DNA of 64,000 nucleotides from Methylococcaceae bacterium UBA4132 (GTDB lineage: Bacteria > Pseudomonadota > Gammaproteobacteria > Methylococcales > Methylomonadaceae), in assembly GCA_002380945.1 (NCBI GenBank), contig DFWO01000190.1, positions 820 through 64,819 of the forward strand. Direction: 5' to 3'. The notes beneath the pieces were generated by a model. That model was given only the letters and a program-made list of their open reading frames with translations. It was not told the DNA's origin and did not search any database. This document shows, piece after piece, positions 2,778 through 56,365 of the stretch. The position numbers and the translations under genes are program-made. The stretch's first letter is position 1, and every line of letters starts with the position of its first letter.

Positions 2778-2818
2778 CAGATTAACTCCTGCTTGAAATA
2801 CTTAGTTGGTATGTAAAT

Positions 2819-5314: not shown

Positions 5315-5491
5315 GTTTTAAGCCCTCCCTTCGTTGGACAGATTTTAACGTTCAACAGACTCGAAATCCTCCATTAAATTCGATACTTGACTTATGCTTT
5401 ATGCTTTTTATTTTAAGGTATTGTAGACATGATGGCATAGGCGTAAAGTTACCCGCAATTAAAAGTAACTAATCGTGTCTGTGGGGCAAAT

Positions 5492-5854
5492 ATGACCAGA
5501 TCCTCAAAAAAACCTAAAACAGTTTCCAAGAATGACGATGACAATCCGCCGCTATTTAAAGGCGATATACTCGCCAAAGCCATCGTTACCAGCGTTAGCG
5601 TTTCAATCATTAATCACACGGGCAAAGCCGTTTTTAGATCACTTACTAAACACCCACTGATTGTATTTGGGTTAGGTGTAACGACAGGCTATTTTGCACA
5701 TAAATATCGTAAACGTATTGTTAAGGCGGGTAATCGGGTCGCTGATGAAAGCAAACAATTTGTCTTGCGCCAAAAAGAAAATATATTGGATTTTCTTGCT
5801 GAAAATCAAGAGGATGTAGAAGAACAAGGTAGTTCAAAAGAAATAGATAAATAG
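5492..5854 (+). CDS. Hypothetical small protein with one or two hydrophobic segments
   Basis: 120-aa ORF with a charged N- and C-terminus and a central hydrophobic stretch. No recognisable motif. Confidence 0.4.
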   Translation: MTRSSKKPKTVSKNDDDNPPLFKGDILAKAIVTSVSVSIINHTGKAVFRSLTKHPLIVFGLGVTTGYFAHKYRKRIVKAGNRVADESKQFVLRQKENILDFLAENQEDVEEQGSSKEIDK

Positions 5855-5971
5855 TCGAAAACTAAAATTTTCAGATAGTTAAGATAACTGAGAGGCTGAA
5901 ATCTACAATATATTTTAGACTCCTAAAAAATTTGTAACACCATGTTTTGAAATCTATAAACAAGGAGAATT

Positions 5972-8446
5972 ATGATGACTACTGCTACTGCAAACATCGC
6001 TGTTTTAAAACATGGCAAAGTAGTACATGACACCAGCCGACGTGTGCGTATCATTGCCCCTGTATTAAATAAAGATTTAGAACGTGCCTATGTATTAGAA
6101 ATATTATTAAAAAAACGTTCAGGTATTTTAAAAGTACGCACGGTGGTAGATATTGCCTCGTTGACCATTCATTTTGATCCAGTCTTATTGCCTAAAAATA
6201 ATTTACTTACACTGGTGGATGCCTTGTTAGGTAATTTGGGTCAGAAAAAAATCAGTAACACAGACACCTCATTAGCGGATGAAGAGCTGGATAGTACCAT
6301 CGCCCCACAAGAATTTAATCTAGCGATTGAAGGTATGAGCTGTGTTTCCTGTGCGTTATTAATAGAAATGTTGTTGCGTAAAGATAGGCGAATTATCGCT
6401 GCCCATGTTAATTTTGCTACCGAACAAGCTACCATCATTGGCACAATAGATGAAGACACCTTGTCTGCACTCATTGAAAAAATAGGCTATCGGGCGCACA
6501 GCTTTGATACCTTGGCACAACGTAAATTGCTGATTGAACGTGAACAACAGCGTTTAAGTGCTGCCAAAAGACGCGCCGTACTCGCTGTAGCTCTCAGTGT
6601 GCCAGTCATGCTGATTGGTATGGCAGCACCGACTTCTCGATTTTGGCATTGGGCGCAACACGCATTGGCTACGCCCATTGTATTGTGGGCGGGTCAACCT
6701 TTTTTTACTAAAGCCTATAAACTGGCGCGTCAAGGTGCTACCAATATGGACAGCTTGATTGCTTTAGGAGTAGGTTCATCTTATGGTTACAGTGTGTTTT
6801 CCTTGTTAGCAGGTCAACGCGGACTGTATTTTGATTCGGCAACAGGCATTATCTCTTTTGTACTCATCGGACGTTATCTGGAAGAAAAAGCCAAAGGTAA
6901 AGCCCACGAATCCATACGCTCATTGGTCGATTTACAACCGCAATACGCGAGTGTTTTGCAAGGTGAACACGAAATTATTGTTCCTGTCGAACAACTGGCA
7001 TTAGACGATGTAGTATTAATTCGTGCAGGTGAAAAAATTCCCACCGACGGCATCGTCATTGCAGGCTTATCGACGGTGGATGAATCTATGGTGACGGGTG
7101 AAAGTCTACCCGTCATCAGAGATATTGGACAGCGTTTAGTGGGGGGCTGTATCAATGGCAATGGCGTATTGACCATGCGCGTCACGGCAGTTGGCAAAGA
7201 TACTGTGCTTGCCAATATCATACACATGGTCGATCAAGCGCAATCTTCCAAATTGCCCATTCAACAAACTGTTGATCGTATTTCGGCAGTGTTCGTTCCT
7301 AGTGTTATTGCGGTAGCGACACTCACTTTTGCAAGCTGGATGGCAGTTGGCGTGGGTTTTAGAATCGCTTTTAGTAATGCAGTGGCGGTGTTATTGATTG
7401 CTTGCCCTTGCTCCTTAGGATTGGCGACACCGATGGCAATTATGGTGGGAACAGGACGGTCAGCGCAACGCGGTGTTTATATTCGTAATGGTGAAAGCCT
7501 AGAAATGGCTGCCAAAATGACCACGATAGTGTTTGATAAAACAGGAACGATTACCGAAGGTAAACCACGCGTCACCGATTTTATTCAAGTTTCTGACGAG
7601 AGCGAACAACACATTTTGGCTCTACTCGCTTCAGCTGAATTTGACTCAGAACATTTTCTGGCTAAAACCATTGTGGCTTATGCGTTGGAGCGCGATATTA
7701 AACTGCTGAAAATCGACAGCTTCAATGCAACTATTGGCAACGGTATTGTTGCTGAAGTAGACGGCAATACTATTTTGATGGGTAATCAAACGTGGTTGGA
7801 ACAATCGGGCGTGCAGATAAACACCTTATGCGAACAAGCAGCGACTTTTGCTAAACAAGGTAAAACGCCTATATTTGCCAGCATTAATGGTAATGCAGTC
7901 GCATTATTCGGTATTGCTGACCAGCCGCGCCGCAATGCCAAAACTGCGATAGCGCGTTTGCTCAAGATGGGTGTTACACCATTAATGGTGACGGGTGATA
8001 CCGAACAAACCGCGCGTTATGTAGCAGAACAAGTCGGTATCTCCGCCGTGATTGCCAATGCTCATCCAGAGCGGAAACTGGAAATTGTTCGTGAATTACA
8101 AGCACAAGGTAAAAAGGTTGGCATGATAGGCGATGGTATTAATGATGCGCCCGCTATTGCCGCCGCCGATGTCAGTTTTGCCATTGGTACAGGCACCGAT
8201 GTTGCTATTGAAACAGCCGACTTAACGCTAGTAAGTGGTGATATTAGCAAAGTCGTCGATGTGATGGAATTGAGCGATGCCACGTTGCGTATTATCAAGC
8301 AAAATTTGTTTTGGGCATTGGGTTACAACACCATTGCGATACCTGTCGCGGCTATGGGTAGACTCAATCCGATGATTGCCTCAGCCGCGATGGCGTTTAG
8401 TTCTATTTCCGTCGTACTGAATTCTTTACGATTACAACATAAATAA
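5972..8446 (+). CDS. copA: Cu(I)-translocating P1B-type ATPase (CopA-like) with an extra Cys-less N-terminal domain
   Basis: HMA motif GMSCVSCA, TGES, membrane CPC (IACPCSLGLATP), DKTGT, GDGINDAP. TM YN (LGYN) and MxxSS (MAFSS) match the P1B-1 signature. Confidence 0.9.
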   Translation: MMTTATANIAVLKHGKVVHDTSRRVRIIAPVLNKDLERAYVLEILLKKRSGILKVRTVVDIASLTIHFDPVLLPKNNLLTLVDALLGNLGQKKISNTDTSLADEELDSTIAPQEFNLAIEGMSCVSCALLIEMLLRKDRRIIAAHVNFATEQATIIGTIDEDTLSALIEKIGYRAHSFDTLAQRKLLIEREQQRLSAAKRRAVLAVALSVPVMLIGMAAPTSRFWHWAQHALATPIVLWAGQPFFTKAYKLARQGATNMDSLIALGVGSSYGYSVFSLLAGQRGLYFDSATGIISFVLIGRYLEEKAKGKAHESIRSLVDLQPQYASVLQGEHEIIVPVEQLALDDVVLIRAGEKIPTDGIVIAGLSTVDESMVTGESLPVIRDIGQRLVGGCINGNGVLTMRVTAVGKDTVLANIIHMVDQAQSSKLPIQQTVDRISAVFVPSVIAVATLTFASWMAVGVGFRIAFSNAVAVLLIACPCSLGLATPMAIMVGTGRSAQRGVYIRNGESLEMAAKMTTIVFDKTGTITEGKPRVTDFIQVSDESEQHILALLASAEFDSEHFLAKTIVAYALERDIKLLKIDSFNATIGNGIVAEVDGNTILMGNQTWLEQSGVQINTLCEQAATFAKQGKTPIFASINGNAVALFGIADQPRRNAKTAIARLLKMGVTPLMVTGDTEQTARYVAEQVGISAVIANAHPERKLEIVRELQAQGKKVGMIGDGINDAPAIAAADVSFAIGTGTDVAIETADLTLVSGDISKVVDVMELSDATLRIIKQNLFWALGYNTIAIPVAAMGRLNPMIASAAMAFSSISVVLNSLRLQHK

Positions 8447-8459
8447 ATTCATCAACTTT

Positions 8460-9743
8460 ATGACTACTAAGGCACACCCAGTAACCCATTCTTTATTCAG
8501 CATGTTTAAAAAAATTGCCGCGATTATAGTCGCGCTGAGCGGCATTGCTTTCATTTTATGGCTAGATAGCTGGTTTATGAATCATACCGATATGCCTAAA
8601 ATCGGTGCTGATATGAGCTATGGCTTATTGCTATTAATTGGTTTTTTAACCAGTTTTCATTGTGTTGGTATGTGTGGACCATTGATTCTAGGCTATACCG
8701 CGAAAACGGCGGCTAACGGTAATAAAACGCATCACCCGCATTTGCTTTACGGTATCGGCAAAACGCTATCCTATACCAGTATTGGTGCAATGTTTGGCGC
8801 GTTCGGCTCAATTATTGCCTTTACGCCTTATACACAAGGCGCGGTAGGGGTTGCGGCGGGCATCTTTTTGTTTTTGTTTGGACTGCACATGTTAAATGTC
8901 TTTCCTGCACTGAATCATTTTCAGTTCAAACCGCCTGCTTTTTTGACGCGCTTTATCAGTAAGGAATACCGCAAACACGGTAATCCCTTTGTCATCGGTT
9001 TGTTAAATGGGCTAATGATTATTTGTGGACCATTACAAGCGATGTATGTGATGGCGGCGGGAACGGGGAATTGGTTACAGGGTGCGGCAACTTTGTTTTT
9101 TTTTGGTATTGGAACCCTGCCGTTGTTGATGGGTTTTGGTTTTCTGACCAGTATGCTGTCAGCAAACTTAACGCCTAAGTTATTAAAAGCCTCTGGTTTA
9201 ATTGTCATGGCATTGGGTGTGATTATGCTCAATCGCGGTTTAGCTGTTACAGGAACAGGCGTAGATTTCAATACCATAGTGGCGCGAGTATCGCAAAAAC
9301 TCTCTCCAAAAGGGGCAGAATCGGTGTCTTGCGAATTTGGGCAAAGCATCAGCATGGATGTATTGAAATCAAGTTATTCGCCTAACCAGTTCATCATTCG
9401 CAAAGGCATTCCATTACAATGGGAAATTAATGTGAAAGAACTTAATGAATGCAATAAAGAAATTGTCATTCCAGACTATGATATGAAAATACCCTTAAAA
9501 AAAGGCAAACAGACGGTTGAATTTACGCCTAAAGAAGTGGGCGTTATACCGTGGAGTTGTTGGATGGGTATGATACCTGGCACGTTTATCGTGGTAGAAG
9601 ACACGCCTGCCGACAAACCCGCAGAGCTTGCCGATAGTTCAAACTCTGAACAAGTTGATTTAGTCGAGCAAAGTCAGCAATGGCTACAAGAATTAAAACA
9701 ATTTTGGCAATCTTTATATTCACGAGGTGAGGATAAGCCATGA
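8460..9743 (+). CDS. DsbD_2/TauE-like polytopic membrane protein fused to a C-terminal cupredoxin-like domain
   Basis: Membrane motifs SFHCVGMCGPL and MIICGPLQA. C-terminal beta-rich domain ends in WSCWMGMIPGTFIVVE (C-x-M-x-M copper-site-like). Starts 13 nt after copA. Confidence 0.75.
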   Translation: MTTKAHPVTHSLFSMFKKIAAIIVALSGIAFILWLDSWFMNHTDMPKIGADMSYGLLLLIGFLTSFHCVGMCGPLILGYTAKTAANGNKTHHPHLLYGIGKTLSYTSIGAMFGAFGSIIAFTPYTQGAVGVAAGIFLFLFGLHMLNVFPALNHFQFKPPAFLTRFISKEYRKHGNPFVIGLLNGLMIICGPLQAMYVMAAGTGNWLQGAATLFFFGIGTLPLLMGFGFLTSMLSANLTPKLLKASGLIVMALGVIMLNRGLAVTGTGVDFNTIVARVSQKLSPKGAESVSCEFGQSISMDVLKSSYSPNQFIIRKGIPLQWEINVKELNECNKEIVIPDYDMKIPLKKGKQTVEFTPKEVGVIPWSCWMGMIPGTFIVVEDTPADKPAELADSSNSEQVDLVEQSQQWLQELKQFWQSLYSRGEDKP

Positions 9744-10048
9744 GAAAATCGTCTTTATTTTTTTACAGTTTGATAACTGAGTTGATGGTGTTGAGCCTGC
9801 TTCTATTATATGGTGCTATAGATAAAAACACCCAACAGGAAAGCCTGCAAGAAAAAGCCATGTTGGTTGAAACGCTACAATTAACGGATTTATGTCTATT
9901 TACTGAAGCACGTTATACGCGGCATTTATCACAAGCGGATTTAAATACCGCGTTTCAAGATCACCCTGTGTCGCTAGAGCATTTTCCGTCTGGCTCATTC
10001 ACTCAGCCGTCGTTTACAGGAATGGGTAGTCATGAACAGTTGGATTGA
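9740..10048 (+). CDS. Small membrane-anchored hypothetical protein
   Basis: ATGA start/stop overlap with the upstream gene. N-terminal TM helix. Overlaps the FtsX-type gene by 17 nt. Confidence 0.5.
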   Translation: MRKSSLFFYSLITELMVLSLLLLYGAIDKNTQQESLQEKAMLVETLQLTDLCLFTEARYTRHLSQADLNTAFQDHPVSLEHFPSGSFTQPSFTGMGSHEQLD

Positions 10049-11276
10049 AAAGCAACGCTATATTATTGATTTCACTTTATCCTCCTTGTTGCGTAGAAAA
10101 GTGAAAAACATAGGATTGTTAGTCTTATATACGTTGATTGTATTTATTTTGGCATCCATGATGTTTTTCACGCATTCCATTAAGCGTGAAGCCGCCTTGA
10201 TTTTAAAAGGTGCGCCAGAAGTTGTCGTGCAGAAAATTGTTGCGGGTCGGCACGATTTAATGCCTATCGAATATTTGGACACCATTAAAAAAATTCGTGG
10301 CGTGGCAACAGCCGCTCCTCGTTTGTGGGGCTACTATTACGACAATCTAGTCAAAGCCAATTACACCTTGTTAGTACCGCCCACTCAGACAACTACCACC
10401 AATATAAGCAGAACCACGGTAGTTGAAAACGAGCCAAACTCACAGAGCGTCGATTTAACCAAACCGCTATACGAAGTAAACGGTACGAAACTGGAATCTG
10501 GCACGATTATTATTGGTAATGGCGTGGCTAGATTACGTCAAATTGCTAAGGGTGATTACATGCCGTTTTTGAGCTTTGATGGCAACGTGATGAATCTCAA
10601 AGTGGTTGATACCTTGTCTGCACAATCCGAATTAGTCTCTTCCGACTTATTGCTAATCACTGAGGAAGATTTTAGAAAACTGTTTGGTATAGATAAGCAG
10701 TTTGTCACCGATATGACCGTAGTGGTCAATAATCCCAGCGAAATGCCAACAGTGGCAGCAAAAATCAAAAAACGTTTACCGCAAGCCCGTCCGATTATTC
10801 GAGATGAAATACTGCGTACTTACGAATCTATTTTCAACTGGCGCGGCGGCATGATGATCGTCATTTTTTCAGCGGCAGTGTTAGCGTTTGTGATTTTTGC
10901 GTGGGATAAAGCGTCGGGGTTGAGTGCAGGTGAGCGGCGCGAAATCGGCATATTAAAAGCCGTCGGTTGGGAAACATCGGATGTGATTCAAATGAAATTT
11001 TGGGAAGGTGCGATTATTTCTCTGACCGCTTTTTTTAGCGGTGTAATTTTAGCCTATATTCATGTGTTCTTTATGGGATCGCCTGTGTTTGAACCTGCTT
11101 TAAAAGGATGGTCGGCTTTATATCCTAATTTTTCGCTTACCCCGTTTGTCAATATCGAACAGCTTACCACGTTATTTTTTCTAACTGTCTTGCCTTACAC
11201 AGTCGCAACCATCGTGCCGATTTGGCGGGCGGCAACCATAGACCCCGATTCTGCGATGCGTTTTACTGGAGATTAG
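10032..11276 (+). CDS. FtsX/MacB-type (type VII) ABC transporter permease
   Basis: N-terminal TM, roughly 230-aa extracytoplasmic domain, and C-terminal FtsX bundle (GILKAVGWETSDVIQMKFWEGAIISL). Confidence 0.85.
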   Translation: MNSWIEKQRYIIDFTLSSLLRRKVKNIGLLVLYTLIVFILASMMFFTHSIKREAALILKGAPEVVVQKIVAGRHDLMPIEYLDTIKKIRGVATAAPRLWGYYYDNLVKANYTLLVPPTQTTTTNISRTTVVENEPNSQSVDLTKPLYEVNGTKLESGTIIIGNGVARLRQIAKGDYMPFLSFDGNVMNLKVVDTLSAQSELVSSDLLLITEEDFRKLFGIDKQFVTDMTVVVNNPSEMPTVAAKIKKRLPQARPIIRDEILRTYESIFNWRGGMMIVIFSAAVLAFVIFAWDKASGLSAGERREIGILKAVGWETSDVIQMKFWEGAIISLTAFFSGVILAYIHVFFMGSPVFEPALKGWSALYPNFSLTPFVNIEQLTTLFFLTVLPYTVATIVPIWRAATIDPDSAMRFTGD

Positions 11277-11279
11277 CGA

Positions 11280-11951
11280 ATGATAGAGCTACACGGTATT
11301 AGAAAAGTTTTCAATGCAGGCAATCCGAGTGAATTTACCGCCATTAACGGTGCTAATTTACAAATTGCTGAAAACCAAATCACAGTGTTAAAAGGACCTA
11401 GCGGTTCTGGCAAAACCACGCTATTAAGCATAGTGGGGTGTATGAGTAGACCGACAGCAGGGCGCGTACATTTAAACGGGCGAGAAATTACCAGTTTACC
11501 TGAGCGTTTTTTAACTGATATTCGTCGTAAAACCTTTGGTTTTATTTTTCAACAACCTAATCTGATTAAAGGTATTTCGGTATTAGAAAATGTGATGTTG
11601 CCCGCTTATCCGCTAGGCGAAAAGCGTTCACAGTTGAGAATAAAGGCATTGGCAGGACTGGATGAGCTGAATATAGGTAACAAATCACATTCCAACGTGG
11701 AATGGCTATCGGGCGGTGAAGCGCAACGGGCTTCTATTGTGCGTGCCTTGATTAATAACCCGTCCATTATTATTGCTGATGAACCCACCGCGCATTTGGA
11801 CAGTAAATTATCGTATCGCTTCATGGAAATCATCGAAAAATTTAAAGCCGAAGGTAAAACCGTGATTATCACTAGCCATGATCCGTTGGTTTACGATGCG
11901 GCTATCGTAGACAGAGTAATTACCATGCGTGATGGGCAAATTGAGGTTTAA
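11280..11951 (+). CDS. ABC transporter ATP-binding protein (LolD/MacB-type)
   Basis: Walker A GPSGSGKTT, signature LSGGEAQR, Walker B IIIADEPT. Confidence 0.92.
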   Translation: MIELHGIRKVFNAGNPSEFTAINGANLQIAENQITVLKGPSGSGKTTLLSIVGCMSRPTAGRVHLNGREITSLPERFLTDIRRKTFGFIFQQPNLIKGISVLENVMLPAYPLGEKRSQLRIKALAGLDELNIGNKSHSNVEWLSGGEAQRASIVRALINNPSIIIADEPTAHLDSKLSYRFMEIIEKFKAEGKTVIITSHDPLVYDAAIVDRVITMRDGQIEV

Positions 11952-11956
11952 ACAAC

Positions 11957-12952
11957 ATGGTTCTGCATCCTACCGTCATTGCTAATTTGTTAGCGGCTTA
12001 TATTGCCAGCTTTATGTTGGTTTATGCGGCGTTTTATGGGGCGCAAATACTGAAATATTGGAATATTCAAAGCGGTGAGGAATTACAGCTTATTCTGGAA
12101 CGTAAAACGTATTTAATCTCCACGTTATTGGGTTATACCTTCGGGTTGCAACTGTTATCGTTGTTTTTGTATATCTTTACTGCTGATAGTTTAACGCCGT
12201 TATTTGTTGGCGCGATGTGTGCGGCGGGTACGTTAAATGTCAGTCATTTTGGTTATAGTGTGCTGGTATTGAAAATCCTCAATTTCATACTGGCAGGATT
12301 GTGGTTAGTTTTGAATTATGCCGACAATCAGGGTTATGACTATCCGCTAATTAAAAAAAAGTACCTACTATTAGCCATTATCGCACCCTTTATTGTGATT
12401 GAGACGCTATTGGAAAGTGCTTATTTTCTAGGCATGAGAGCCGATGTCATTACCTCTTGCTGTGGTAGCTTGTTTAGCAGTGAAAATGCCGCAGGCTTAG
12501 GTTCAGAAATCGCTTCTTTACCTGCTCTGCCGATGTTATGGACTTTTTATGGTGTGATGTTCTGCACCTTAGCGACTGGGCTATATTTTTATATCAAGGG
12601 TAAAGGCGGCTATTGTTATGCGGTACTGAGCCTAGTGATGTTTATTATCGCGCTGGTTTCGGTGGTGTCTTTTATCTCGCTGTATATCTATGAATTGCCC
12701 ACGCATCATTGTCCTTTCTGCATCATCATGGAAGATTATCACTACATCGGTTATTTGCTGTATTTACTATTATTTGGCGCGGTTGTATCGGGTATTGGCG
12801 TAGGTATATTGCTACCTTTTCGGCAAGTAGACAGTCTTAAATTTATGTTGACTGGTTTTATCGGCAAACTCGCACTCAGCTCGGTGCTGTTGTATCTGGC
12901 GTTTACTGCCTTAGTCAGCTATCAAATCGTTTTTTCTAATCTAATTATGTGA
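11957..12952 (+). CDS. Cys-rich polytopic membrane protein of unknown family (about 8 TM)
   Basis: Hydrophobic throughout. Cys motifs GAMCAAGT, ITSCCGS, THHCPFC. Lies 5 nt after the ATPase gene and overlaps the next gene. Confidence 0.7.
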   Translation: MVLHPTVIANLLAAYIASFMLVYAAFYGAQILKYWNIQSGEELQLILERKTYLISTLLGYTFGLQLLSLFLYIFTADSLTPLFVGAMCAAGTLNVSHFGYSVLVLKILNFILAGLWLVLNYADNQGYDYPLIKKKYLLLAIIAPFIVIETLLESAYFLGMRADVITSCCGSLFSSENAAGLGSEIASLPALPMLWTFYGVMFCTLATGLYFYIKGKGGYCYAVLSLVMFIIALVSVVSFISLYIYELPTHHCPFCIIMEDYHYIGYLLYLLLFGAVVSGIGVGILLPFRQVDSLKFMLTGFIGKLALSSVLLYLAFTALVSYQIVFSNLIM

Positions 12953-13449
12953 TGACGACCATGAAAACTCATACAACACGCTACTTGGCACTGTTTATCC
13001 TGCTTCTTAGTATCAATGTCAGCTACGGCGATGAACCCACCATAGAAATTAAAAAAACCGACCGCTGCCCTGTCTGCGGAATGTTTGTTTATAAATATCC
13101 CAAGTGGGTGGCACAAATTATCTTTCAGGATGGCGGGTATTATTTTTATGACGGGGCGAAAGATATGTTTAAGCATTATTTCGACACCGCAAAATACACG
13201 GCTGGCAAATCGGCGGCAAGCATTAAAAATATCTATGTCACTGATTATTACGATGTGGAATTGATAGATGGAAAAACCGCTTTTTATGTGTTGGGTTCAG
13301 ACATATTAGGTCCTATGGGGCATGAATTATTGCCGTTTAAGAATAAGGAATCAGCACAGGAATTTTTAGAAGATCATCAAGGCAAAAGCATTGTTAATTT
13401 TACAGATGTAACGCCAGCCATGATTGAATCGTTGGATAAGCGGCAATGA
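12949..13449 (+). CDS. nosL: NosL-family periplasmic copper-chaperone-like protein
   Basis: Signal peptide. DRCPVCGMFV...YVTDYY...YVLGSDILGPMGHELLPF...A.EF pattern parallels the NosL pattern CHVCGM...YVHDM...YVVGS..GAMG. Confidence 0.8.
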   Translation: MMTTMKTHTTRYLALFILLLSINVSYGDEPTIEIKKTDRCPVCGMFVYKYPKWVAQIIFQDGGYYFYDGAKDMFKHYFDTAKYTAGKSAASIKNIYVTDYYDVELIDGKTAFYVLGSDILGPMGHELLPFKNKESAQEFLEDHQGKSIVNFTDVTPAMIESLDKRQ

Positions 13450-13937
13450 AAATCGTATTACTGCTAATGGCTATACTAATCGGTGCTTGCCATCAGCAAA
13501 CGGGCTTACAAGTTGGTGATGAAATACCCAAGGTCACGCTGAGCGACAGACAAGGAAAAACGCTGAATTTGCCCAAGGATATGCAGGGTAAAGTGGTGTT
13601 GCTGCATTTTTGGAATATGGATTGTCATTTTTGTGATAAAAAAAATCTGTTGTTGTTAGAACCGCTGTACCAAAAATATAAAGCGCAGGCTTTTGTTCCC
13701 ATTGCCGTTAATGTCGGACTTGTCGATAAAAACGATGAACGTTGGAAAGAGTTTGCGGGCTTAACATATCCGATGTTAGTCGATGAGCGCGGTCTGATTG
13801 CCAAACAATTTAACGTGATTGGTTTGCCAACCACGTTTGTTATTGACGGCAAAGGCATTATGCAGAAAAAACTGACGGGTGAAGCACCAATTGACGAATA
13901 TGAAAAACTTTTTAGTTCAATTTTGATAAGGAGATGA
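13446..13937 (+). CDS. TlpA/ResA-like thioredoxin-fold lipoprotein with an atypical CHFC active site
   Basis: Lipobox LIGAC. HFWNMDCHFC sits in the canonical FWxxWCxxC position. GLPTTFVID cis-Pro loop. ATGA overlap with nosL. Confidence 0.8.
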   Translation: MKIVLLLMAILIGACHQQTGLQVGDEIPKVTLSDRQGKTLNLPKDMQGKVVLLHFWNMDCHFCDKKNLLLLEPLYQKYKAQAFVPIAVNVGLVDKNDERWKEFAGLTYPMLVDERGLIAKQFNVIGLPTTFVIDGKGIMQKKLTGEAPIDEYEKLFSSILIRR

Positions 13938-15331
13938 CAATGAAAACACAATCTAAATTGTGGTTGCTACTTGTACTATTCCCGCTTTTTCTAGTGTCGA
14001 GTCAGGTAGCAGCAGAAGAACGAGCGAGTTGTCGGGTTTGTGGTATGTATATTGATCAATACCAAAAAACCGCAGCTGAATTAACTTATAACGATGGTAA
14101 AAAAGAATACACTTGTGGCGTTGCTTGTATGTTACGCGAAGTTGAAGAGGAGGGAGGTATCTCCGCTTTTAAATCGGTAAAAGTCCATGACTGGGTGTCT
14201 GGCAAATTAGTGAATGCTGAAACAGCCACTTATGTGATGGGCAGTAAAGTTATTCCCGACATGGTACCTAACTACATCGCATTTGCTAATCGTGATGAAG
14301 CAGAAGCCTTTGTCGCAAAAGAAGGCGGTGAAATTATCGACTTTAATATCGCTTATCAAGACGTGTCGCCCGTTGGTACCACCGCGCCGTTTCGTTTACG
14401 CACCGCAGTCACTCCAGGTAAAGGCAACTTTAGCGTCGGTATGGTCTATGGCTATAATGAAAAAGATCGTATTAAAAACGGTTCTAATGGCATAAATCCT
14501 AATACGTTTATGAACAATAACGCCGCACAACCTAAAGCACCTAAGCAAATGGTGGTAAATCAACAAGCCTTGACGTTTAACTATTCACCGACCGATGACC
14601 TCGCATTATTTATGAACGTACCTTGGTTTGAAAAACAGATGAATACGCTGGTGCGGACTGGTAAACAGATTAATGATACGTCCGCAGAAAAAAATGGCAT
14701 AGGCGATATTACTTTAGAAGGTCGCTATAACGTTTGGCGTAGTACGCGTTGGGATAAATTTGCGACTGTGCTGTTAGGCACATCATTGCCTTCAGGTCAC
14801 TTTGATGGTAATCGGGATTCATCAGGCGCACTTCAAGCCCCTGGATTACAGTTAGGTAAGGGTGTCGCAACTTTTACGGGCGGTCTTTTATATTCGGAAC
14901 GCTGGAAAGATTGGTGGTTGCACACGTCTGCACTTTATACCGTCAATCCTGAAAACAGCGATGATTTTGCCTTCGGTGATGTTGCCTCAGTCGGTATGGC
15001 TTTACACTACACACCAAACTATGACTGGATGGTCGGTGTTGAAATGGATGCCAGCTACACAGAGAAAAATCAAGACAAGGGCATCAAAGTAGGCAACAGT
15101 GGTGGTACGGCGGTTAATCTAGCGTTTGTTTCCGACTATCGTTTTCTCAACGCGTTAGGCGGCAATTTTAAATTGCGCGGCTCGATTGGTCTGCCAGTTT
15201 ATGAGAATTTGAACTCCAATCCGATGGTGAACGCAAAGAAACAACCGTTTACCCAAGTTCAACTGGGTGATGGTTTTTTTGCTAATGTCGCGCTAGTGTG
15301 GACGTTCCGTGACGCACCAGAAAGTTATTAA
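13934..15331 (+). CDS. Fusion of an N-terminal NosL-like domain to a C-terminal outer-membrane beta-barrel (MetA/phenol-degradation-like)
   Basis: Signal peptide. CRVCGMYI...CGVAC...YVMGSKV...AFANRDEAEAF (NosL-like). About 300 aa of alternating amphipathic strands with aromatic girdle residues follow. ATGA overlap upstream. Confidence 0.7.
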   Translation: MTMKTQSKLWLLLVLFPLFLVSSQVAAEERASCRVCGMYIDQYQKTAAELTYNDGKKEYTCGVACMLREVEEEGGISAFKSVKVHDWVSGKLVNAETATYVMGSKVIPDMVPNYIAFANRDEAEAFVAKEGGEIIDFNIAYQDVSPVGTTAPFRLRTAVTPGKGNFSVGMVYGYNEKDRIKNGSNGINPNTFMNNNAAQPKAPKQMVVNQQALTFNYSPTDDLALFMNVPWFEKQMNTLVRTGKQINDTSAEKNGIGDITLEGRYNVWRSTRWDKFATVLLGTSLPSGHFDGNRDSSGALQAPGLQLGKGVATFTGGLLYSERWKDWWLHTSALYTVNPENSDDFAFGDVASVGMALHYTPNYDWMVGVEMDASYTEKNQDKGIKVGNSGGTAVNLAFVSDYRFLNALGGNFKLRGSIGLPVYENLNSNPMVNAKKQPFTQVQLGDGFFANVALVWTFRDAPESY

Positions 15332-15341
15332 TTAACTTAAA

Positions 15342-15376
15342 CTTCCGAGGTTTTAAAAGCCTCGGAGGTTTATTCT
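15342..15376 (+). terminator. Rho-independent terminator closing the copper operon
   Basis: CTTCCGAGG-ttttaaaag-CCTCGGAGG hairpin followed by TTTATTCTT. Confidence 0.7.
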
Positions 15377-15392
15377 TAAAGGATTATTTTTT

Positions 15393-15848
15393 ATGCGTAA
15401 GCTAAACACATTAAATATTTTATTGGTTCTGATTTGTTGCTTAGCGACATTGGCTTATGCAGACGATTCACAAGAACCGTTACCACCTGATGAGGCGTTT
15501 GCTTTGACCGCTACAGTGCCATCAAGCGATATGCTACGGCTGAGTTGGCAAATCGCTGACGGCTATTATTTGTATCAACACAAATTCGCTATTAGCTCAC
15601 AAACTCCGACTATAAACCTTGCTAAACCGTCTTTTCCTGCCGCAGAAAATAAAAATGATCCATTTTTTGGCACGGTAGCGATTTATCGTCAGCAGCTTAC
15701 ACTGGATATCCCATTAAAACGGCAAGCGGCAACAGACAATTCTGTGACCATAGACGTGACTTTTCAAGGTTGTGCGGATAAAGGAATTTGTTACTTGCCC
15801 ATTCATAAAACCATGAGCTTTGATTTAGCGAATAATGACACCCACTAA
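15393..15848 (+). CDS. Stand-alone DsbD N-terminal (alpha) domain protein
   Basis: Signal peptide. PPDEAFALTA...WQIADGYYLYQHKF...FQGCADKGICYLP matches the DsbD-alpha fold signature with its Cys pair. No beta or gamma domain follows. Confidence 0.75.
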   Translation: MRKLNTLNILLVLICCLATLAYADDSQEPLPPDEAFALTATVPSSDMLRLSWQIADGYYLYQHKFAISSQTPTINLAKPSFPAAENKNDPFFGTVAIYRQQLTLDIPLKRQAATDNSVTIDVTFQGCADKGICYLPIHKTMSFDLANNDTH

Positions 15849-15864
15849 AATTGAACAGCTTTTA

Positions 15865-17130
15865 TTATACGTCTTCCATCTTTACAGAACTTAATAAACC
15901 CAAGTGTTTAGCATCAATTTCAATTAGCAATTCACTTGCACCAAAATCGTCGATTTTTTCCTCTAAAATTTGCGCACAAGCAGATAGTTTTGCGCGAATA
16001 TCACCTTGATTAGCATTTAAGTAACAGCGTTTTTTAAGTTTAGAACTGGCAAATTGTTCCGTTAGCACTTGATAAAGTAACTCAAGTCCCAGCCCTGTTT
16101 CAGCCGAAATCCAAACGCGTATCGCATTACCTGCATCGTCACGATCAATATGCGGCTGAACATTTTCCAATAAATCAATTTTATTAAACACTTCTACACG
16201 CCTGATTTTATCCGCACCTATTTCTTCCAAAACCAAATGAACTTGGTGCATGATTTCATCACGATCTTCAGCATTGGCATCAATAACGTGTAGTAATAAT
16301 TCGGCTTCACTGGCTTCTTGCAAGGTTGATTTGAATGCCGCAACTAATTCATGCGGTAAATGACGAATAAAACCGACCGTATCAGCTAACACAATGTCGG
16401 TATTATTGGGCAACACACAACTGCGTAACGTCGGATCTAAGGTAGCGAATAATTGATCTGCAACATAAATCCCCGCGCCTGTTATCGTGTTGAATAGTGT
16501 TGATTTGCCCGCATTGGTATAACCGACTAAGGAAACCGTCGGCACTTCGGCTTTTTTGCGTTGACTACGCCCTTGATGACGTTGCTTATCGACTTTATCC
16601 AAGCGTTGCTGAATTTGCTTAATGCGTACGGCTAATAAACGGCGATCGGTTTCTAATTGGGTTTCGCCAGGACCGCGTAAACCAATACCGCCTTTTTGCC
16701 GTTCCAAATGCGTCCAACCGCGTACTAAGCGTGTGGATAAGTGCTTTAATTGTGCTAATTCAACTTGTAATTTACCTTCAAACGATTGAGCGCGTTGGGC
16801 GAAAATATCCAGAATTAAACCGTTTCTATCCACCACCCGTACGCCTAAAAATTTTTCCAGATTTCTTTCCTGACTGGGCGATAACGGATGATTGAACAAC
16901 ACCACATCGGCTTCATATTGTTCAATCATGGCTTTAAGTTCGTCTAGTTTGCCTATGCCGATAAAATATTTGGGATCAGGACGTTGACGGCTACCTGTGA
17001 CAACATAAACAGGATCAGTGCCAGCGGATTTAGCTAACTCTTTTAATTCAAAAAGATTTTCCTGTTCATAACGAAAGCTTATGTGAACGAGAATCGCTCG
17101 TTCACCTGAATCGGGGGGGCGATCAAACAC
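15865..17130 (-). CDS. hflX: GTPase HflX
   Basis: G1 GYTNAGKSTLFN, G3 DTVGF, G4 NKID. The GTG at 17130 has a GGAG 6 nt upstream. The ORF track's alternative GTG is at 17142. Confidence 0.9.
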   Translation of the reverse strand: MFDRPPDSGERAILVHISFRYEQENLFELKELAKSAGTDPVYVVTGSRQRPDPKYFIGIGKLDELKAMIEQYEADVVLFNHPLSPSQERNLEKFLGVRVVDRNGLILDIFAQRAQSFEGKLQVELAQLKHLSTRLVRGWTHLERQKGGIGLRGPGETQLETDRRLLAVRIKQIQQRLDKVDKQRHQGRSQRKKAEVPTVSLVGYTNAGKSTLFNTITGAGIYVADQLFATLDPTLRSCVLPNNTDIVLADTVGFIRHLPHELVAAFKSTLQEASEAELLLHVIDANAEDRDEIMHQVHLVLEEIGADKIRRVEVFNKIDLLENVQPHIDRDDAGNAIRVWISAETGLGLELLYQVLTEQFASSKLKKRCYLNANQGDIRAKLSACAQILEEKIDDFGASELLIEIDAKHLGLLSSVKMEDV

Positions 17131-19990: not shown

Positions 19991-20091
19991 AGACCTTACA
20001 TCACAACGTTTTTATACAAATTGTTTAGTTAAACAAGATTTTATATGGTGGTTGATTGTTTAAGAATTTGGTTTCAATTAAGAGGTGTTAA

Positions 20092-20301
20092 ATGACAATT
20101 GCAGAACACAGATTAACTATAATTCATCAAATTGAAGAATTATCCGAAGAATCACTGATTGAATTGGAAAAAATCATTGCCAAATTAAAAGCTAAACAGA
20201 AAAGTGATGATATTTCTGATTTAGGTGGTTTTTTTAAAAACAATACCATTGTATTAACGAATGAAGAACTTTGTAAGCCCGTTGATTTCAACGAGGAATA
20301 A
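20092..20301 (+). CDS. Putative type II antitoxin (partner of the PIN toxin)
   Basis: 69-aa acidic helical ORF that ends 2 nt before the PIN gene. Confidence 0.55.
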   Translation: MTIAEHRLTIIHQIEELSEESLIELEKIIAKLKAKQKSDDISDLGGFFKNNTIVLTNEELCKPVDFNEE

Positions 20302-20303
20302 GC

Positions 20304-20696
20304 GTGGTTATTGCCGTTGATACTAATATCATTATTCGTCTTGCTATGCGGGATGATGAAATACAATATCAAAAAGTAATGGCGTTATTTAAAGAACAGC
20401 AATTTTTTATCAGCCGAACCGTACAGCTTGAAACAGAATGGGGTTTACGTTCTCGTTATAAACGTACTGTTGCTGAAATCGCTGATTTTTTCGCTTTGTT
20501 ATTACAAAAGAATCAGATTATTTGTGAAAACGAGCAAGCCCTAATGACGGCAATTTATTGTTATCGTTTAGGAGCTGATTTTGCCGATGCTTTGCATTTA
20601 ACCAATACCCAGAATATGCCTTTTTATACCTTTGATGAACGATTTTGTAAAAAGGCAATTCAGGAAAGTTTAGTGTCGCGGGTTAATTTTCTGTAA
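20304..20696 (+). CDS. vapC: PIN-domain toxin (VapC family)
   Basis: Acidic quartet positions VDTNI (D6), LETEW, DFADALH, TFDERF. GTG start. Confidence 0.75.
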   Translation: MVIAVDTNIIIRLAMRDDEIQYQKVMALFKEQQFFISRTVQLETEWGLRSRYKRTVAEIADFFALLLQKNQIICENEQALMTAIYCYRLGADFADALHLTNTQNMPFYTFDERFCKKAIQESLVSRVNFL

Positions 20697-20749
20697 TGGT
20701 ATTAGAACTGACAGATTTTAAAACCTTGTTAATTAGAACTTGAAAGAAT

Positions 20750-20780
20750 GTTGGGGTTCGCAAAGCTCATCCCAACGTAC
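20750..20780. repeat. REP-like hairpin GTTGGGG-n13-CCCAAC-GTAC
   Basis: Inverted repeat read directly from the sequence. Intergenic. Confidence 0.6.
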
Positions 20781-20794
20781 GCGGTACTTTAAAT

Positions 20795-22003
20795 ATGTTT
20801 GAATCTATTACTATTTTTAATCAAAATAAAACAAGTGTATCAACACCATTAGATATAGGTGCTTTAGTTGAATGTATGTTGTTTTATGGCAATACCACTA
20901 TAGTTGCTAATCAAAGCACTTTGAAGCAATTATTTAGATACTTTGGAATAGATGGAATTATTGAGCTTATCAATGAAGATTTATTGCAAATAATTTACAC
21001 AGAAACATTTTTAGGTATACATACTAAAACTATTAATAAACTTGAGTATCATGATTTTATTGCGGCAACAACAGATTCAATGCAATACCAAACAGCACTT
21101 AGAAATATTTGTATTGAAATAACAGATAAAAAAGGAAAAGGAAGGAGAATTGCCCAAAGAATACAAAGTCAAGACTTAATTAAAGTAAAAAAGCATGAAA
21201 ATATTATTCTGGATGGTTCAAAAAACTCTATTCTTAATCAAGAATATATGAATAATGCCACTAAAATTATTTTAAAAAATTCTATTCCTGAAAAAATTGA
21301 TGTCGATAATATAATATTTCATACGAATGAAACAGAAAATGGCGTATTTGTCTCTTCCAATATAGATTTTTCAGCACTAAATAAGATTTATCACAAATAT
21401 ATTCCTCCATCTCACTCAACCATAACACACGCTCATTTACTTAGTCATATTTTGGACATGGAAAGTGAGCTTTACTTTTCTGCTAATAATCTTTCTGAAA
21501 TAGCAACAAGTGAATTAGGCTCTGAACTTATATCACATAAAATAAGTTATATTATGGATAAAAGCATTAAAAGCAAAAAATCTATATCAGATTTTCAACA
21601 GTTTGTTTTTAATGATGCGAAGTCATTAAGAGAAGCTGTCAATAATGGAAAAGTCGATATAAATGACTTAATATCTGTTCTTAAAAAATCACAAAAATTT
21701 AAGAAATGGATTTCTGGTGTTGAATCCAATCAGAATCTTCTTAAAGAATATTATAACGAAGTAGCAAATGAAACTTTCTTAGAAAAACTTACAGGAAAAA
21801 CGGCACGGTTTTGTTTTTTTGTTGGTTCTGCTGAATTACTTACTCATTTAGCCACAAACTCTGTACTGCCAAATGATATTGCAAAAATGGTAGGTCTCGG
21901 ATTTAGTGTTTTTGATTATTTTTGGCTTGACCGATTATATTCTGGTTGGAAACCGAATCAATTTATTGAAAATGAAGTAAAGAAATTATTGGTTAGCAAA
22001 TAA
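20795..22003 (+). CDS. Orphan 402-aa protein, markedly AT-rich gene, no recognisable domain
   Basis: Long uninterrupted ORF. Lys/Asn/Ile-rich composition contrasts with the neighbours. Hydrophobic C-terminal segments (ARFCFFVGSAELL, MVGLGFSVFDYFWL). Confidence 0.6.
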   Translation: MFESITIFNQNKTSVSTPLDIGALVECMLFYGNTTIVANQSTLKQLFRYFGIDGIIELINEDLLQIIYTETFLGIHTKTINKLEYHDFIAATTDSMQYQTALRNICIEITDKKGKGRRIAQRIQSQDLIKVKKHENIILDGSKNSILNQEYMNNATKIILKNSIPEKIDVDNIIFHTNETENGVFVSSNIDFSALNKIYHKYIPPSHSTITHAHLLSHILDMESELYFSANNLSEIATSELGSELISHKISYIMDKSIKSKKSISDFQQFVFNDAKSLREAVNNGKVDINDLISVLKKSQKFKKWISGVESNQNLLKEYYNEVANETFLEKLTGKTARFCFFVGSAELLTHLATNSVLPNDIAKMVGLGFSVFDYFWLDRLYSGWKPNQFIENEVKKLLVSK

Positions 22004-53611: not shown

Positions 53612-54116
53612 TCACTCGCCAAATGATAATCCTGAATTATTTTCTAAACCACCCCAATGATTGGCATAAATACCCAACGCCACATAATCATGAAAACTGG
53701 AATAACGCCAATCAAACACTTGATTTACCCAACCGTGTTTGACAGGATTCCAATGAATATAATCCACATGACGGTTAAAATCTTCTTGATTCATAATGAG
53801 GTGCGCCCAAAAACGCCGTTGCCAGAGTCCACGCTCCCTGCGTTTTTCACGGCTTGTGTTCACCTTGCGGAATCGAGCGTGAGAAATGCCCTTTTAATAA
53901 ATTCCAGCGCGTTGAAAAATCGGTATCATCGGGCGGTAACGTCCAAATGCAATGTAAATGTTCGGGCAAAATCACAATGGCATTAATATGAAATGGCTTG
54001 CGGGTTTTGACATAATGAAAAGAAGCCCTCAGCAAATCAATATGTTCAATCAACAAATGATTATTGTGCCGTTCAGCCAGATTGACAGTAAAAAAACCAA
54101 GTCGCATTCGGTACAT
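53612..54116 (-). pseudogene. REP-associated tyrosine transposase (RAYT, IS200/IS605-like Y1 transposase), single frameshift near 53850-53865
   Basis: HUH motif ILPEHLHCIW in ORF 53847-54116. ERGLWQRRFWAH...HVDYIHWNPVKHGWV...WRYSSFHDY in ORF 53612-53863. The two frames overlap at GGTGAACACAAGCC. Confidence 0.8.
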
Positions 54117-54161
54117 ATAATCGCCGATAGTGAGTCATGGGTTTATTTTAAGTGGATTACA

Positions 54162-54286
54162 TCTCGTTCCCAAACTCAGGTTTGGGAATGCCTATTACCA
54201 AGCTCCGCTTGGCGTACCAATGAATAAAACAGGTTAATATTCACGTTTAATAACGATTAAACATCAAGCAGAGCTTGGGAACGAGA
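54162..54286. repeat. REP cluster next to the RAYT gene, bounded by the inverted repeat TCTCGTTCCCA...TGGGAACGAGA
   Basis: GTTCCCAAACTCAGGTTTGGGAA hairpin, CCAAGCtccGCTTGG hairpin, and terminal CAAGCAGAGCTTGGGAACGAGA. Confidence 0.75.
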
Positions 54287-54310
54287 CACCTGACTAACGT
54301 ATGCGATAGC

Positions 54311-54508
54311 TTATTTAATTTTATATATGTAATTAAGAAAATGTAACAGTAATGCTATTGCGCTAAAAAAGAGAGAAATCCAAGGAATTACATCTTTTTT
54401 CCAAAAATCACGTCTTCTAAGTTCCTTTTTTGCAGCTATATATAACGGGCTTGTTGGTTCAGTTTGTACAGCTATGTTTTCAAGCTCTTCTATTGTTTTA
54501 TCACGCAT
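54311..54508 (-). CDS. 65-aa protein with a single C-terminal TM helix
   Basis: Starts 4 nt after the NTPase stop. WISLFFSAIALLLHFLNYIY hydrophobic helix. AT-rich. Confidence 0.55.
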   Translation of the reverse strand: MRDKTIEELENIAVQTEPTSPLYIAAKKELRRRDFWKKDVIPWISLFFSAIALLLHFLNYIYKIK

Positions 54509-54512
54509 AATT

Positions 54513-55904: not shown

Positions 55905-55966
55905 TTGAGGAGAGTTTTTATAAATAAAGTCATAAAATGTTTCAGTGTCATAAAGTAAATTACTGT

Positions 55967-56365
55967 CTAGTTCTTTACATCTAATGCACCTAAGCGTTCT
56001 TCTATGTCTTCCTTTTTGTATATGCTCGCTCCATTAACAAACATAGGCAAAAGCAAAGACTTATCTATAATTTTTGCAGCAGACCCATCAATCGAAAAAA
56101 ATCCTTTGAGAGTTGTCGTTTTACCGATGCCTGTTAGACCTATAAAAAATTGTGCATTATTCTGTTGGTCTGTAGCAAATATATTAAGTTCCTCATGAAC
56201 TAATCCATTTGCTATATATATATTATTTAAATTAGGAAACTGTTGGCGATTTCGTGTTGGACTAAGAAGTGATGTAAATTGATGACGAAATCTACGAAAA
56301 ATATCATTCGTGCGGCGACGTTGTGATGATGAGTCATTACTACCGATATTTATTTTAAAATCCAT
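55967..56365 (-). CDS. N-terminal portion of the same P-loop NTPase (Walker A)
   Basis: Walker A GLTGIGKTT. The ORF ends at a TAG just after an A-run (GATGTAAAGAACTAG). One extra A would fuse it to the downstream frame (…GALDVKELDSNLLYD…). Confidence 0.6.
   Translation of the reverse strand: MDFKINIGSNDSSSQRRRTNDIFRRFRHQFTSLLSPTRNRQQFPNLNNIYIANGLVHEELNIFATDQQNNAQFFIGLTGIGKTTTLKGFFSIDGSAAKIIDKSLLLPMFVNGASIYKKEDIEERLGALDVKN

Follow-up and report, generated by a model that had tools for sequence, protein, structure and literature searches.

We analyzed a 64,000-nucleotide (nt) stretch of the genome of Methylococcaceae bacterium UBA4132 (GenBank assembly GCA_002380945.1, contig DFWO01000190.1, positions 820 to 64,819; hereafter the window, with positions counted from its first letter), in which a plus-strand open reading frame (ORF) at 13934-15331 encodes a NosL-type metallochaperone domain joined to a predicted outer-membrane beta-barrel. 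The frame is uninterrupted and was listed at 465 amino acids (aa). A sequence-only reading of this DNA had pointed out the ORF and several motifs, all of which are present exactly where it placed them (CRVCGMYI at residues 33-40, CGVAC at 61-65, YVMGSKV at 100-106 and AFANRDEAEAF at 116-126), and the architecture it described, a signal peptide followed by a NosL module and an outer-membrane barrel, was borne out by Pfam matches, an AlphaFold2 model and Foldseek comparisons. An AAGGAG ribosome-binding site at 13928-13933 abuts the listed ATG at 13934 and leaves an ideal spacing of 6 nt to another ATG, at 13940. Given this spacing, the MKT... N-termini of the homologues and the 463-aa length of a 99%-identical metagenome protein (P0001), the true start is probably ATG 13940, giving a protein of 463 aa.

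The protein opens with a predicted Sec signal peptide (residues 1-27, 13934-14014) composed of a K-rich n-region, the hydrophobic core LWLLLVLFPLFLV and VAA before the predicted signal peptidase I cut, after which the chain continues EERAS. We looked for a lipobox in this signal peptide and found none, the first cysteine, C33, being preceded by RAS. The NosL-type domain, predicted to be periplasmic, occupies residues 28-142 (14015-14359) and was matched by Pfam NosL (PF05573) over residues 25-138 with an E value of 2.5e-19 and 70.3 bits against a cut-off of 24, or 74 bits when the domain was scored alone. A linker and putative plug at residues 143-164 (DVSPVGTTAPFRLRTAVTPGKG, 14360-14425) leads into a part resembling the COG4313 and FapF barrels (residues 165-465, 14426-15328), where Phenol_MetA_deg (PF13557, the COG4313 barrel family) matched residues 209-386 with an E value of 7.9e-7 and 29.8 bits against a cut-off of 22; the isolated C-terminal part scored 31 bits against this model, a modest match. 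All of these features lie on the plus strand.

The fusion is conserved in independent genomes

The sequence-only reading had allowed for a missed stop codon or an assembly artefact. Comparative data exclude this, along with any other error of sequencing or assembly that would have merged two distinct genes. A homologue search of 5.8 billion proteins found 315 fusion homologues. Among the 120 listed, nearly all are full length (about 460-490 aa) at about 60-99% identity, and most bear both Pfam domains in precomputed annotation. They come from independent assemblies that include complete genomes of Methylomicrobium lacus, Methylocaldum, Methylomonas montana, Methylosarcina fibrata and Methylicorpusculum (Methylicorpusculum oleiharenae). 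Scanning a single genome for each species gave 41 fusion loci, nearly all in Methylococcales, the others being in one Nitrosomonas communis metagenome-assembled genome (MAG) and in several MAGs with vague labels (three 'uncultured Gammaproteobacteria', one 'delta proteobacterium' and one 'bacterium'). Residues 141-164, at the junction, form the most conserved segment of the fusion, and the signal peptide is the least conserved in an alignment of 34 homologues. Since full-length homologues occur in independent assemblies and the junction is the segment of highest conservation, we ruled out an assembly artefact or a missed stop; with the reading frame continuous, and with the fusion recurring at 23-47% identity in other phyla, an artefact has practically no chance of being the right explanation.

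Predicted metal site of the NosL domain

The NosL domain was compared with the solved NosL proteins of S. denitrificans (7OG7), P. stutzeri (7OSF-7OSJ, 7ZNQ) and Achromobacter cycloclastes (2HPU/2HQ3). The family profile matched P. stutzeri NosL from the NosDFY-NosL complex (7osf_H) with an E value of 3.7e-8, S. denitrificans NosL (7og7) with 7e-6 and A. cycloclastes NosL (2hpu) with 2.4e-4. The site of S. denitrificans NosL is heterobimetallic, with Zn(II) held by Cys59, Cys62, Cys88 and Asp92 and Cu(I) by Cys62, Met64 and Met145; the Cu(I) ligands are strictly conserved and essential, and the Zn site varies between NosL proteins (PMC8457098). We counted the ligand correspondences residue by residue through the printed alignment with this protein, which pairs C33 (codon 14030-14032) with Cys59, C36 (14039-14041) with Cys62, M38 (14045-14047) with Met64, C61 (14114-14116) with Cys88, C65 (14126-14128) with Asp92 and M110 (14261-14263) with Met145, so that the metal-site codons span 14030-14263 and the one ligand replaced is the Zn-binding Asp, by Cys. 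C33, C36, G37, M38, C61, C65 and M110 are invariant among the 34 homologues. From this alignment the domain is predicted to hold a Zn(Cys)4-like site and to bind Cu(I) through Cys/Met/Met.

The four-cysteine spacing, C33-x2-C36-x24-C61-x3-C65, had led the sequence-only reading to compare the site with TRASH-type metal sites, for which the TRASH/YHS consensus is C-x2-C-x19-22-C-x3-C. No YHS/TRASH Pfam model matched the NosL domain even at E <= 10; with this, the x24 spacing and cysteines that map onto the NosL Zn/Cu site, we rejected membership of the TRASH/YHS class. The pattern would be better explained as the Zn site of NosL in a form that has Cys in place of Asp, beside an intact Cu(I) site. 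The resemblance itself stands and reflects ancestry, as NosL and MerB are described as built or derived from treble-clef, TRASH-like units (PMC10114901).

The N-terminal domain of the fusion shares the Pfam family and fold class of classical NosL. Its CxxCGM motif, third Cys and distal Met fall on the Zn and Cu(I) ligands of classical NosL, whereas its fourth Zn ligand is Cys rather than Asp. Classical NosL is predicted to be an outer-membrane-anchored lipoprotein (PMC8457098), and a predicted outer-membrane location and a co-encoded ABC transporter are common to both. However, classical NosL has a lipobox anchor where the fusion has none and would be anchored by a 300-residue beta-barrel; it is encoded with nosZ, nosD and nosFY, none of which adjoin the fusion; its ABC partner is NosFY, whereas the ABC neighbour of the fusion is of the FtsX/MacB type; and the hosts of the fusion, unlike those of classical NosL, are aerobic methane and ammonia oxidisers. 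Neither nos_propeller nor NosD was matched in the window ORFs scanned, a set that leaves out about 20 smaller ORFs (150-402 aa) between 20000 and 64000. Judged by its sequence and ligands the N-terminal domain is a member of NosL, one lacking the classical lipoprotein anchor and membership in a nos cluster.

Predicted barrel and linker

An AlphaFold2 model of the fusion, built on the 34 homologues, had a mean predicted local distance difference test (pLDDT) score of 73, with values of about 80-90 across most of the barrel. It comprised an alpha/beta domain at residues 31-142 and beta-strands at 165-459, and in its DSSP string we read 12 predicted strands with long extracellular hairpins. The best structural match found by Foldseek in the PDB was the FapF amyloid secretion channel (E value 1.7e-11, template modelling (TM) score 0.68-0.72), and the COG4313 channel Pput2725 (4rl8) matched with an E value of 2e-10 and a TM score of 0.69. 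The model, PF13557 and these matches therefore agree that the C-terminal region forms a barrel, as the sequence-only reading had supposed.

Pput2725 and FapF are 12-stranded barrels in which a segment before strand 1 occludes the lumen (PMC4493636, PMC5557850). In Pput2725 a conserved loop cluster, Asp92/Thr94 and Pro119-Thr120-Gly121-x-Tyr123, marks a proposed lateral gate (PMC4493636). The fusion has the loop motifs G255-x-G257-D258 (GxGD, 255-258) and P286-S-G288-x-F290 (P-S/T-G, 286-288), which correspond to the Pput2725 loop cluster and to the "PTG" motifs of FapF, and its barrel ends in a C-terminal Tyr. A family-wide alignment of 18 diverse relatives, including stand-alone barrels, left P152 before the barrel and G255, G257, D258, P286, G288, G348, G390 and P421 invariant. 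By these sequence motifs and by its predicted fold, the C-terminal part is a barrel of the COG4313/PF13557 type.

The likeness to the two channel groups extends beyond the fold but is incomplete in each case. With the COG4313 channels (Pput2725, PDB 4RL8; SphA; TcpY) the fusion has in common the predicted 12-stranded barrel, the GD and P-T/S-G loop motifs and a conserved pre-strand-1 segment able to occlude the lumen; those channels, however, lack a periplasmic domain, their N-terminal part being only about 14 residues long, and they are tied to hydrophobic substrates whereas the setting of the fusion is one of metals. FapF (PDB 5O65/5O67/5O68) has the same layout, a periplasmic N-domain, a linker, a plug and a 12-stranded barrel, in which the N-domain influences plug release (PMC5557850), and the same conserved PTG motifs. 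Its N-domain is a trimerising coiled coil, unlike the metallochaperone of the fusion, and it exports unfolded protein from a fap operon (FapA-E) to which the neighbours of the fusion are unrelated. A FapF-type secretion channel was rejected on these grounds, only the barrel fold being common. The stand-alone barrels nearest to the fusion (P0152, P0172) have no metal genes nearby, and the Rosetta-stone support that we sought from them was likewise rejected.

An even number of strands leaves both termini of a barrel in the periplasm, which would place the NosL domain there. When open, the lumen of a 12-stranded barrel is about 10-12 Å wide (PMC4493636), and a folded domain of 115 residues exceeds this. 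On the model, then, the NosL domain must be suspended on the periplasmic side, which leaves the linker as the sole candidate for a plug. The sequence-only reading had put a Cu(I)-type site at, or inside, an outer-membrane pore: the ligand alignment and the attachment to a barrel support a site at the outer membrane, and the predicted dimensions speak against a NosL domain inside the barrel.

Conservation among the 34 close homologues was highest on the periplasmic side, at 0.91 for the linker and 0.88-0.95 for the periplasmic turns. The extracellular loops L1, L2, L3 and L6 scored 0.58-0.67, the lowest values outside the signal peptide, with L4 at 0.78 and L5 at 0.74. In the diverse set, strand positions assigned to the lumen scored 0.63 against 0.55 for lipid-facing positions, chiefly in strands 6-11. 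This pattern would fit a plug packed on a conserved lumen together with a periplasmic docking surface, and it fits a stable anchor as well as a gated channel of the kind that the sequence-only reading had in mind when it suggested gated metal passage over the outer membrane. The combined Met and His content of the plug and first strands was 0-8% in the Methylococcales clade and 18-26% in five distant fusions, including the type found in nos clusters.

These data bear on the proposal that the barrel is an anchor and nothing more, replacing the lipid anchor while permanently plugged and transporting nothing, with copper taken from the periplasm, for example from the Cu+-ATPase encoded by an adjacent gene. 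The predicted outer-membrane lipoprotein nature of classical NosL and the missing lipobox of the fusion, which would need another anchor, agree with it; so do the lack of a Met/His track in the Methylococcales barrel and the concentration of conservation in the linker and turns, as expected of a docking platform, and the conserved lumen residues could merely hold the plug. Yet a barrel of 300 residues with GxGD and P-T/S-G motifs that are invariant family-wide and mark the proposed lateral gate of Pput2725 would be an expensive anchor. The same barrel family makes real channels, FapF and, reportedly, SphA and TcpY among them, and the distant fusions have plug regions rich in Met and His, as is typical of Cu(I) paths. 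We regard a purely anchoring barrel as less likely than not.

A conserved metal- and thiol-handling gene cluster

The fusion is the ninth of ten plus-strand genes between 5972 and 15848 that are separated by gaps of at most 61 nt. Stops and starts overlap by 4 nt at 8460-9743/9740-10048, 11957-12952/12949-13449, 12949-13449/13446-13937 and 13446-13937/13934-15331, and by 17 nt at 9740-10048/10032-11276, from which we take the genes to form an operon. A promoter and terminator scan of 5300-16200 gave counts at the level of shuffled sequence and was uninformative.

The first gene (5972-8446) encodes a P1B-1 Cu(I)-translocating P-type ATPase with one HMA domain (NCBIfam TIGR01511 ATPase-IB1_Cu, 571.6 bits against a cut-off of 397). 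It is followed by a DsbD_2-family membrane protein (8460-9743; Pfam DsbD_2, E value 5e-44) with an HCVGMCGP motif and a C-terminus that is weakly cupredoxin-like (Cupredoxin_1, E value 0.0016, below the curated cut-off), where PWSCWMGM resembles a cupredoxin or CuA domain. A small protein of 102 aa with an N-terminal hydrophobic segment (9740-10048) had no family match in Pfam scans; its gene always precedes that of the permease, and its counterparts in related loci are 56-73% identical. In locus L045 a 99-aa gene holds this position. The permease (10032-11276) belongs to the FtsX family and is of the MacB/LolC type (Pfam FtsX; NCBIfam LolCE/MacB-like), its L045 homologue bearing MacB_PCD, and the gene after it encodes an ABC ATPase (11280-11951; Pfam ABC_tran, NCBIfam LolD-like).

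Between the ABC ATPase and the NosL genes there is always a gene for a polytopic membrane protein, in the window one of 331 aa with about eight transmembrane segments (11957-12952) and no match in Pfam, NCBIfam or PDB sequences. Its 5,593 homologues are all hypothetical; one UniRef homologue is named "VKOR domain-containing", a name that could not be verified. MC, CC and HHCPFC motifs are invariant in the family alignment and are predicted by the positive-inside rule to lie on periplasmic loops. The AlphaFold2 model had a mean pLDDT of 54.5, too poor for fold comparison. The protein possibly represents a new family of metal- or thiol-handling membrane proteins.

The gene at 12949-13449 encodes a short secreted NosL paralogue of 166 aa (Pfam NosL, E value 2.2e-34), which keeps CxxCGM, D-x3-D and the Met of GPMG and has Asp at both later Zn positions. 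It is syntenic in all related loci, and a short NosL also stands beside the fusion in loci L045 and L047 and in the nos clusters of Flavobacteriia. An NCBIfam scan gave no model naming the fusion, the short NosL or the 331-aa protein. The next gene (13446-13937), whose stop overlaps the start of the fusion gene, encodes a TlpA/ResA-like periplasmic thiol-disulfide reductase with a CHFC motif (Pfam AhpC-TSA/Redoxin; NCBIfam ResA/TlpA), an assignment to which synteny also contributes. Downstream of the fusion lies a gene for a 151-aa DsbD N-terminal (alpha) domain protein (15393-15848; Pfam DsbD_N, E value 1.6e-32), and a DsbD gene takes this place in most related loci. The window protein could be an independent alpha domain, or else a DsbD cut short by a rearrangement. 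In M. lacus (L012 11493-13256), the only locus that was fully checked, the gene at this position encodes a full-length DsbD (587 aa), and in the window the DsbD-N gene is directly followed by hflX on the opposite strand.

We compared the cluster with the 41 related loci by tblastn. The order from the 102-aa gene to DsbD-N is kept in essentially every locus that is long enough (about 30 loci), and homologues of the Cu+-ATPase and DsbD_2 proteins lie near the cluster in most, in variable orientation. The arrangement before the 102-aa gene differs between genomes: in most Methylococcales loci the ATPase and DsbD_2 genes point away from each other on either side of a gene for a conserved 120-aa membrane protein, whereas in the window the ATPase gene is co-directional and contiguous and the homologue of the 120-aa protein is at 5492-5854. 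Ahead of the 102-aa gene, M. lacus has an inserted gene for a 635-aa secreted protein, and L008 has two inserted ORFs that are likewise unrelated to the cluster.

The composition of the cluster bears on a further proposal, that the barrel is a metal-regulated channel for a hydrophobic or amphipathic molecule, maybe a copper-chelating one, with the NosL domain acting as a metal-sensing gate rather than a carrier. The hydrophobic substrates of COG4313 channels, the detergent molecules bound in the Pput2725 lumen (PMC4493636), the influence of the FapF periplasmic domain on plug release and the lack of Met and His in the lumen-proximal segment of the Methylococcales clade are all in line with this. 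The conserved cluster, however, has genes neither for making nor for degrading such a molecule, the conserved neighbours are all metal- or thiol-handling, and the fusion keeps every Cu(I) ligand of a transfer-competent NosL. We therefore consider a channel of this kind very improbable.

Elsewhere in the window, a multicopper oxidase (Cu-oxidase_2, Cu-oxidase_3) is encoded about 47 kb downstream on the minus strand (62350-63993) and is a possible periplasmic copper client or copper-tolerance enzyme. Just upstream of the cluster (648-5314, plus strand) are a response-regulator/PAS/GGDEF/EAL-like gene and a hybrid sensor kinase-like gene (receiver, HPt), as read by eye from their translations. 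Two patches of low guanine-plus-cytosine content, 20001-22000 (0.30) and 54001-56000 (0.31) against about 0.41 elsewhere, are possibly islands; the first holds a small antitoxin-like ORF and a PIN/VapC toxin-like ORF (20092-20696) with a 402-aa ORF, and the second a 463-aa ORF with no Pfam match.

Distant fusions and their gene contexts

An exhaustive HMMER search of 1.84 billion representatives added about a dozen 50%-identity clusters that contain the fusion. The gene set of a small protein, FtsX, ABC ATPase, a membrane protein of about 330 aa, NosL-barrel and short NosL recurs where the fusions themselves are only 32-36% identical to the window protein. Around P0131 (36% identity), a partial CusA is followed by a 99-aa protein, a MacB_PCD/FtsX permease, an ABC ATPase, a 329-aa membrane protein with the same Cys motifs as the 331-aa protein, the fusion and a short NosL. 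P0129 lies between a 339-aa protein and a short NosL, and P0133 is accompanied by a short NosL and a 124-aa protein on one side and FtsX on the other. The fusion P0123 (45% identity) stands beside CusA and CusB with an ABC ATPase, a 333-aa protein and an unassigned 378-aa gene at the permease position.

CusA/CusB/CusF genes adjoin the cluster in three lineages (loci L025, L045 and L049). One is the N. communis MAG, whose contig starts inside the cluster (L025 1-14638), leaving the genes from the ABC ATPase to the NosL-barrel visible at 52-83% identity to methanotroph proteins. After the cluster come an LTXXQ protein, a CusC fragment, an insertion sequence (IS) transposase, a CusB-CusF fusion and CusA, an arrangement suggestive of horizontal transfer of the cluster within a copper island.

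Such neighbours raise copper or silver efflux as the main alternative to supply. Cu(I) delivered by the P1B ATPase would pass to the short NosL and, with ATP input from the MacB-type system, to the tethered NosL and out through the barrel, parallel to CusCFBA. A Cu+-exporting ATPase adjoins the cluster in Methylococcales, Cus genes do so in the three other lineages, once beside the IS transposase, MacB-type ABC systems (by NCBIfam similarity) are exporters or extractors, and the closest structural neighbour, FapF, is an export channel. Against these points, neither a membrane-fusion protein nor a TolC-like duct, the usual partners of MacB-type systems, is encoded in the cluster to couple ATP energy to the outer membrane, and NosL is documented in no role but that of delivering to an enzyme. 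The clade occurs mainly in organisms whose copper demand is very high, and a pair of short NosL and NosL-barrel lies inside nosZ maturation clusters, where export makes no sense. We judge efflux rather unlikely, yet its fit with the neighbouring Cu+-ATPase and Cus genes makes it a serious rival.

These nosZ-linked fusions belong to the most distant type, which is about 23-26% identical to the window protein, comprises about 2,800 sequence clusters and occurs in Tenacibaculum, Maribacter, Algibacter, Psychroserpens and other Flavobacteriia. In three of these genomes it is part of a clade II nos cluster consisting of cytochrome c, nosZ, a 210-aa protein, a short NosL, the NosL-barrel, nosD, nosF and nosY; the NosL-barrel genes are at L051 10001-11413 in Tenacibaculum, L055 8001-9389 in Maribacter thermophilus and L056 8001-9419 in Marixanthomonas ophiurae. 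They have the domain order of the window fusion (NosL, then a PF13557 barrel), a similar length (460-472 aa), a short NosL partner and an ABC system that follows. Their setting is nosZ-nosDFY, whereas no nos genes adjoin the window fusion. In Tenacibaculum P0210, the one member examined, the linker and first strands are rich in His and Met (HHHEHH...APIGVMGDHLH), and only C-x2-C and one later Cys are present. The trio of short NosL, NosL-barrel and ABC system is thus found with two different ABC machines, and in the Tenacibaculum, Maribacter and Marixanthomonas setting only copper supply makes sense.

Databases label NosL-barrel proteins "NosL" or "transporter", and a full-text literature search found no description of the fusion, its operon or the Flavobacteriia type. 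The sequence-only reading had known of this architecture in no characterised NosL protein, and we too found none; the rarity that this might imply does not hold, given hundreds of Methylococcales sequences and the Flavobacteriia clusters. The NosL-barrel fusion is real, widespread and uncharacterised, and joins two known parts, NosL and a COG4313 barrel, in a design undescribed in the literature we found.

Discussion

On the balance of this evidence we lean towards reading the fusion as a NosL-type Cu(I) chaperone that a COG4313/FapF-like 12-stranded barrel in the same polypeptide, taking the place of the lipid anchor, keeps on the periplasmic side of the outer membrane; this seems to us probable, if not by much. 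The NosL domain would face the periplasm and bind Zn and Cu(I), and the 22-residue linker would fold into the barrel lumen as a plug, as in Pput2725 and FapF. The tethered NosL may exchange Cu(I) with the co-encoded soluble NosL, and the MacB-type ABC transporter may act as an ATP-driven mechanotransducer for periplasmic Cu(I) hand-over, like NosFY-NosD for NosL. In that system Cu passes from NosL to NosD, which sits on the NosFY ABC complex (PDB 7osf-7osj, 7znq; summarised in PMC13068155). The TlpA-like reductase and DsbD parts would keep the four cysteines reduced in the aerobic periplasm.

As to direction, we favour supply of copper to periplasmic or membrane cuproenzymes over efflux, because delivery to an enzyme is the documented role of NosL, because the analogous pair sits in nosZ maturation clusters and because the clade is found almost only in Methylococcales and N. 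communis, both of which rely on copper membrane monooxygenases. A bolder form of supply makes the plugged barrel itself the route by which copper crosses the outer membrane. The fusion would then be a TonB-independent copper gate of a new class in the outer membrane: copper or a small complex of it would enter through the plugged barrel and be captured by NosL at the periplasmic mouth, and the soluble NosL and then the MacB-type mechanotransducer would load copper enzymes. An entry role for the barrel is likely but unproven, and the gate as a whole, with all its steps, is a tentative proposal that we would not expect to hold in full.

Several observations weigh against the tethered-chaperone reading or its copper-supply direction. 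The linker is modelled at low confidence (pLDDT below 50 for residues 138-152), and its assignment as a plug rests on analogy. By sequence, a soft-ligand copper path through the Methylococcales barrel is not evident, since the plug and first strands of that clade are poor in Met and His, in which Cu(I) pathways are characteristically rich. The substrates proposed for COG4313 channels are hydrophobic molecules rather than ions (PMC4493636). A position beside Cu+-ATPase and Cus genes suits detoxification or efflux no less than supply, and the absence of a membrane-fusion protein and TolC from the cluster leaves the MacB-type system without its usual partners. One distant fusion, P0121, has no metal-related genes nearby, and the Flavobacteriia fusions of the nos clusters have low identity to the window protein. 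The metal binding, topology, partners and direction of the fusion are, moreover, all inferred.

Outer-membrane copper importers include the TonB-dependent NosA/OprC and PcoB/CopB. The fusion may be functionally analogous to them as a dedicated outer-membrane protein for copper traffic to periplasmic cuproenzymes, but their folds are unrelated, being those of 22-stranded TonB-dependent receptors with a plug domain, and neither a TonB box nor homology to these proteins was detected in the fusion. Energy coupling for the fusion, if any, would have to be provided by the ABC system.

The passage of copper over the outer membrane and its routing in the periplasm are poorly understood, especially in methanotrophs without methanobactin, whose main enzyme needs copper. 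The fusion family is a concrete, conserved candidate for outer-membrane copper handling, co-encoded with a second NosL, a putative ABC mechanotransducer, a thiol-reducing module and a Cu+-ATPase. It would give the COG4313/FapF barrel fold a part in metal trafficking and take NosL biology outside denitrification, and the fusions in nosZ clusters (three marine Flavobacteriia, within a type of about 2,800 clusters) may bear on the maturation of N2O reductase. If the copper gate is true, it would be the missing outer-membrane step in copper supply to the particulate monooxygenases of methane and ammonia oxidisers, and the equivalent step for nitrous oxide reductase in Flavobacteriia.

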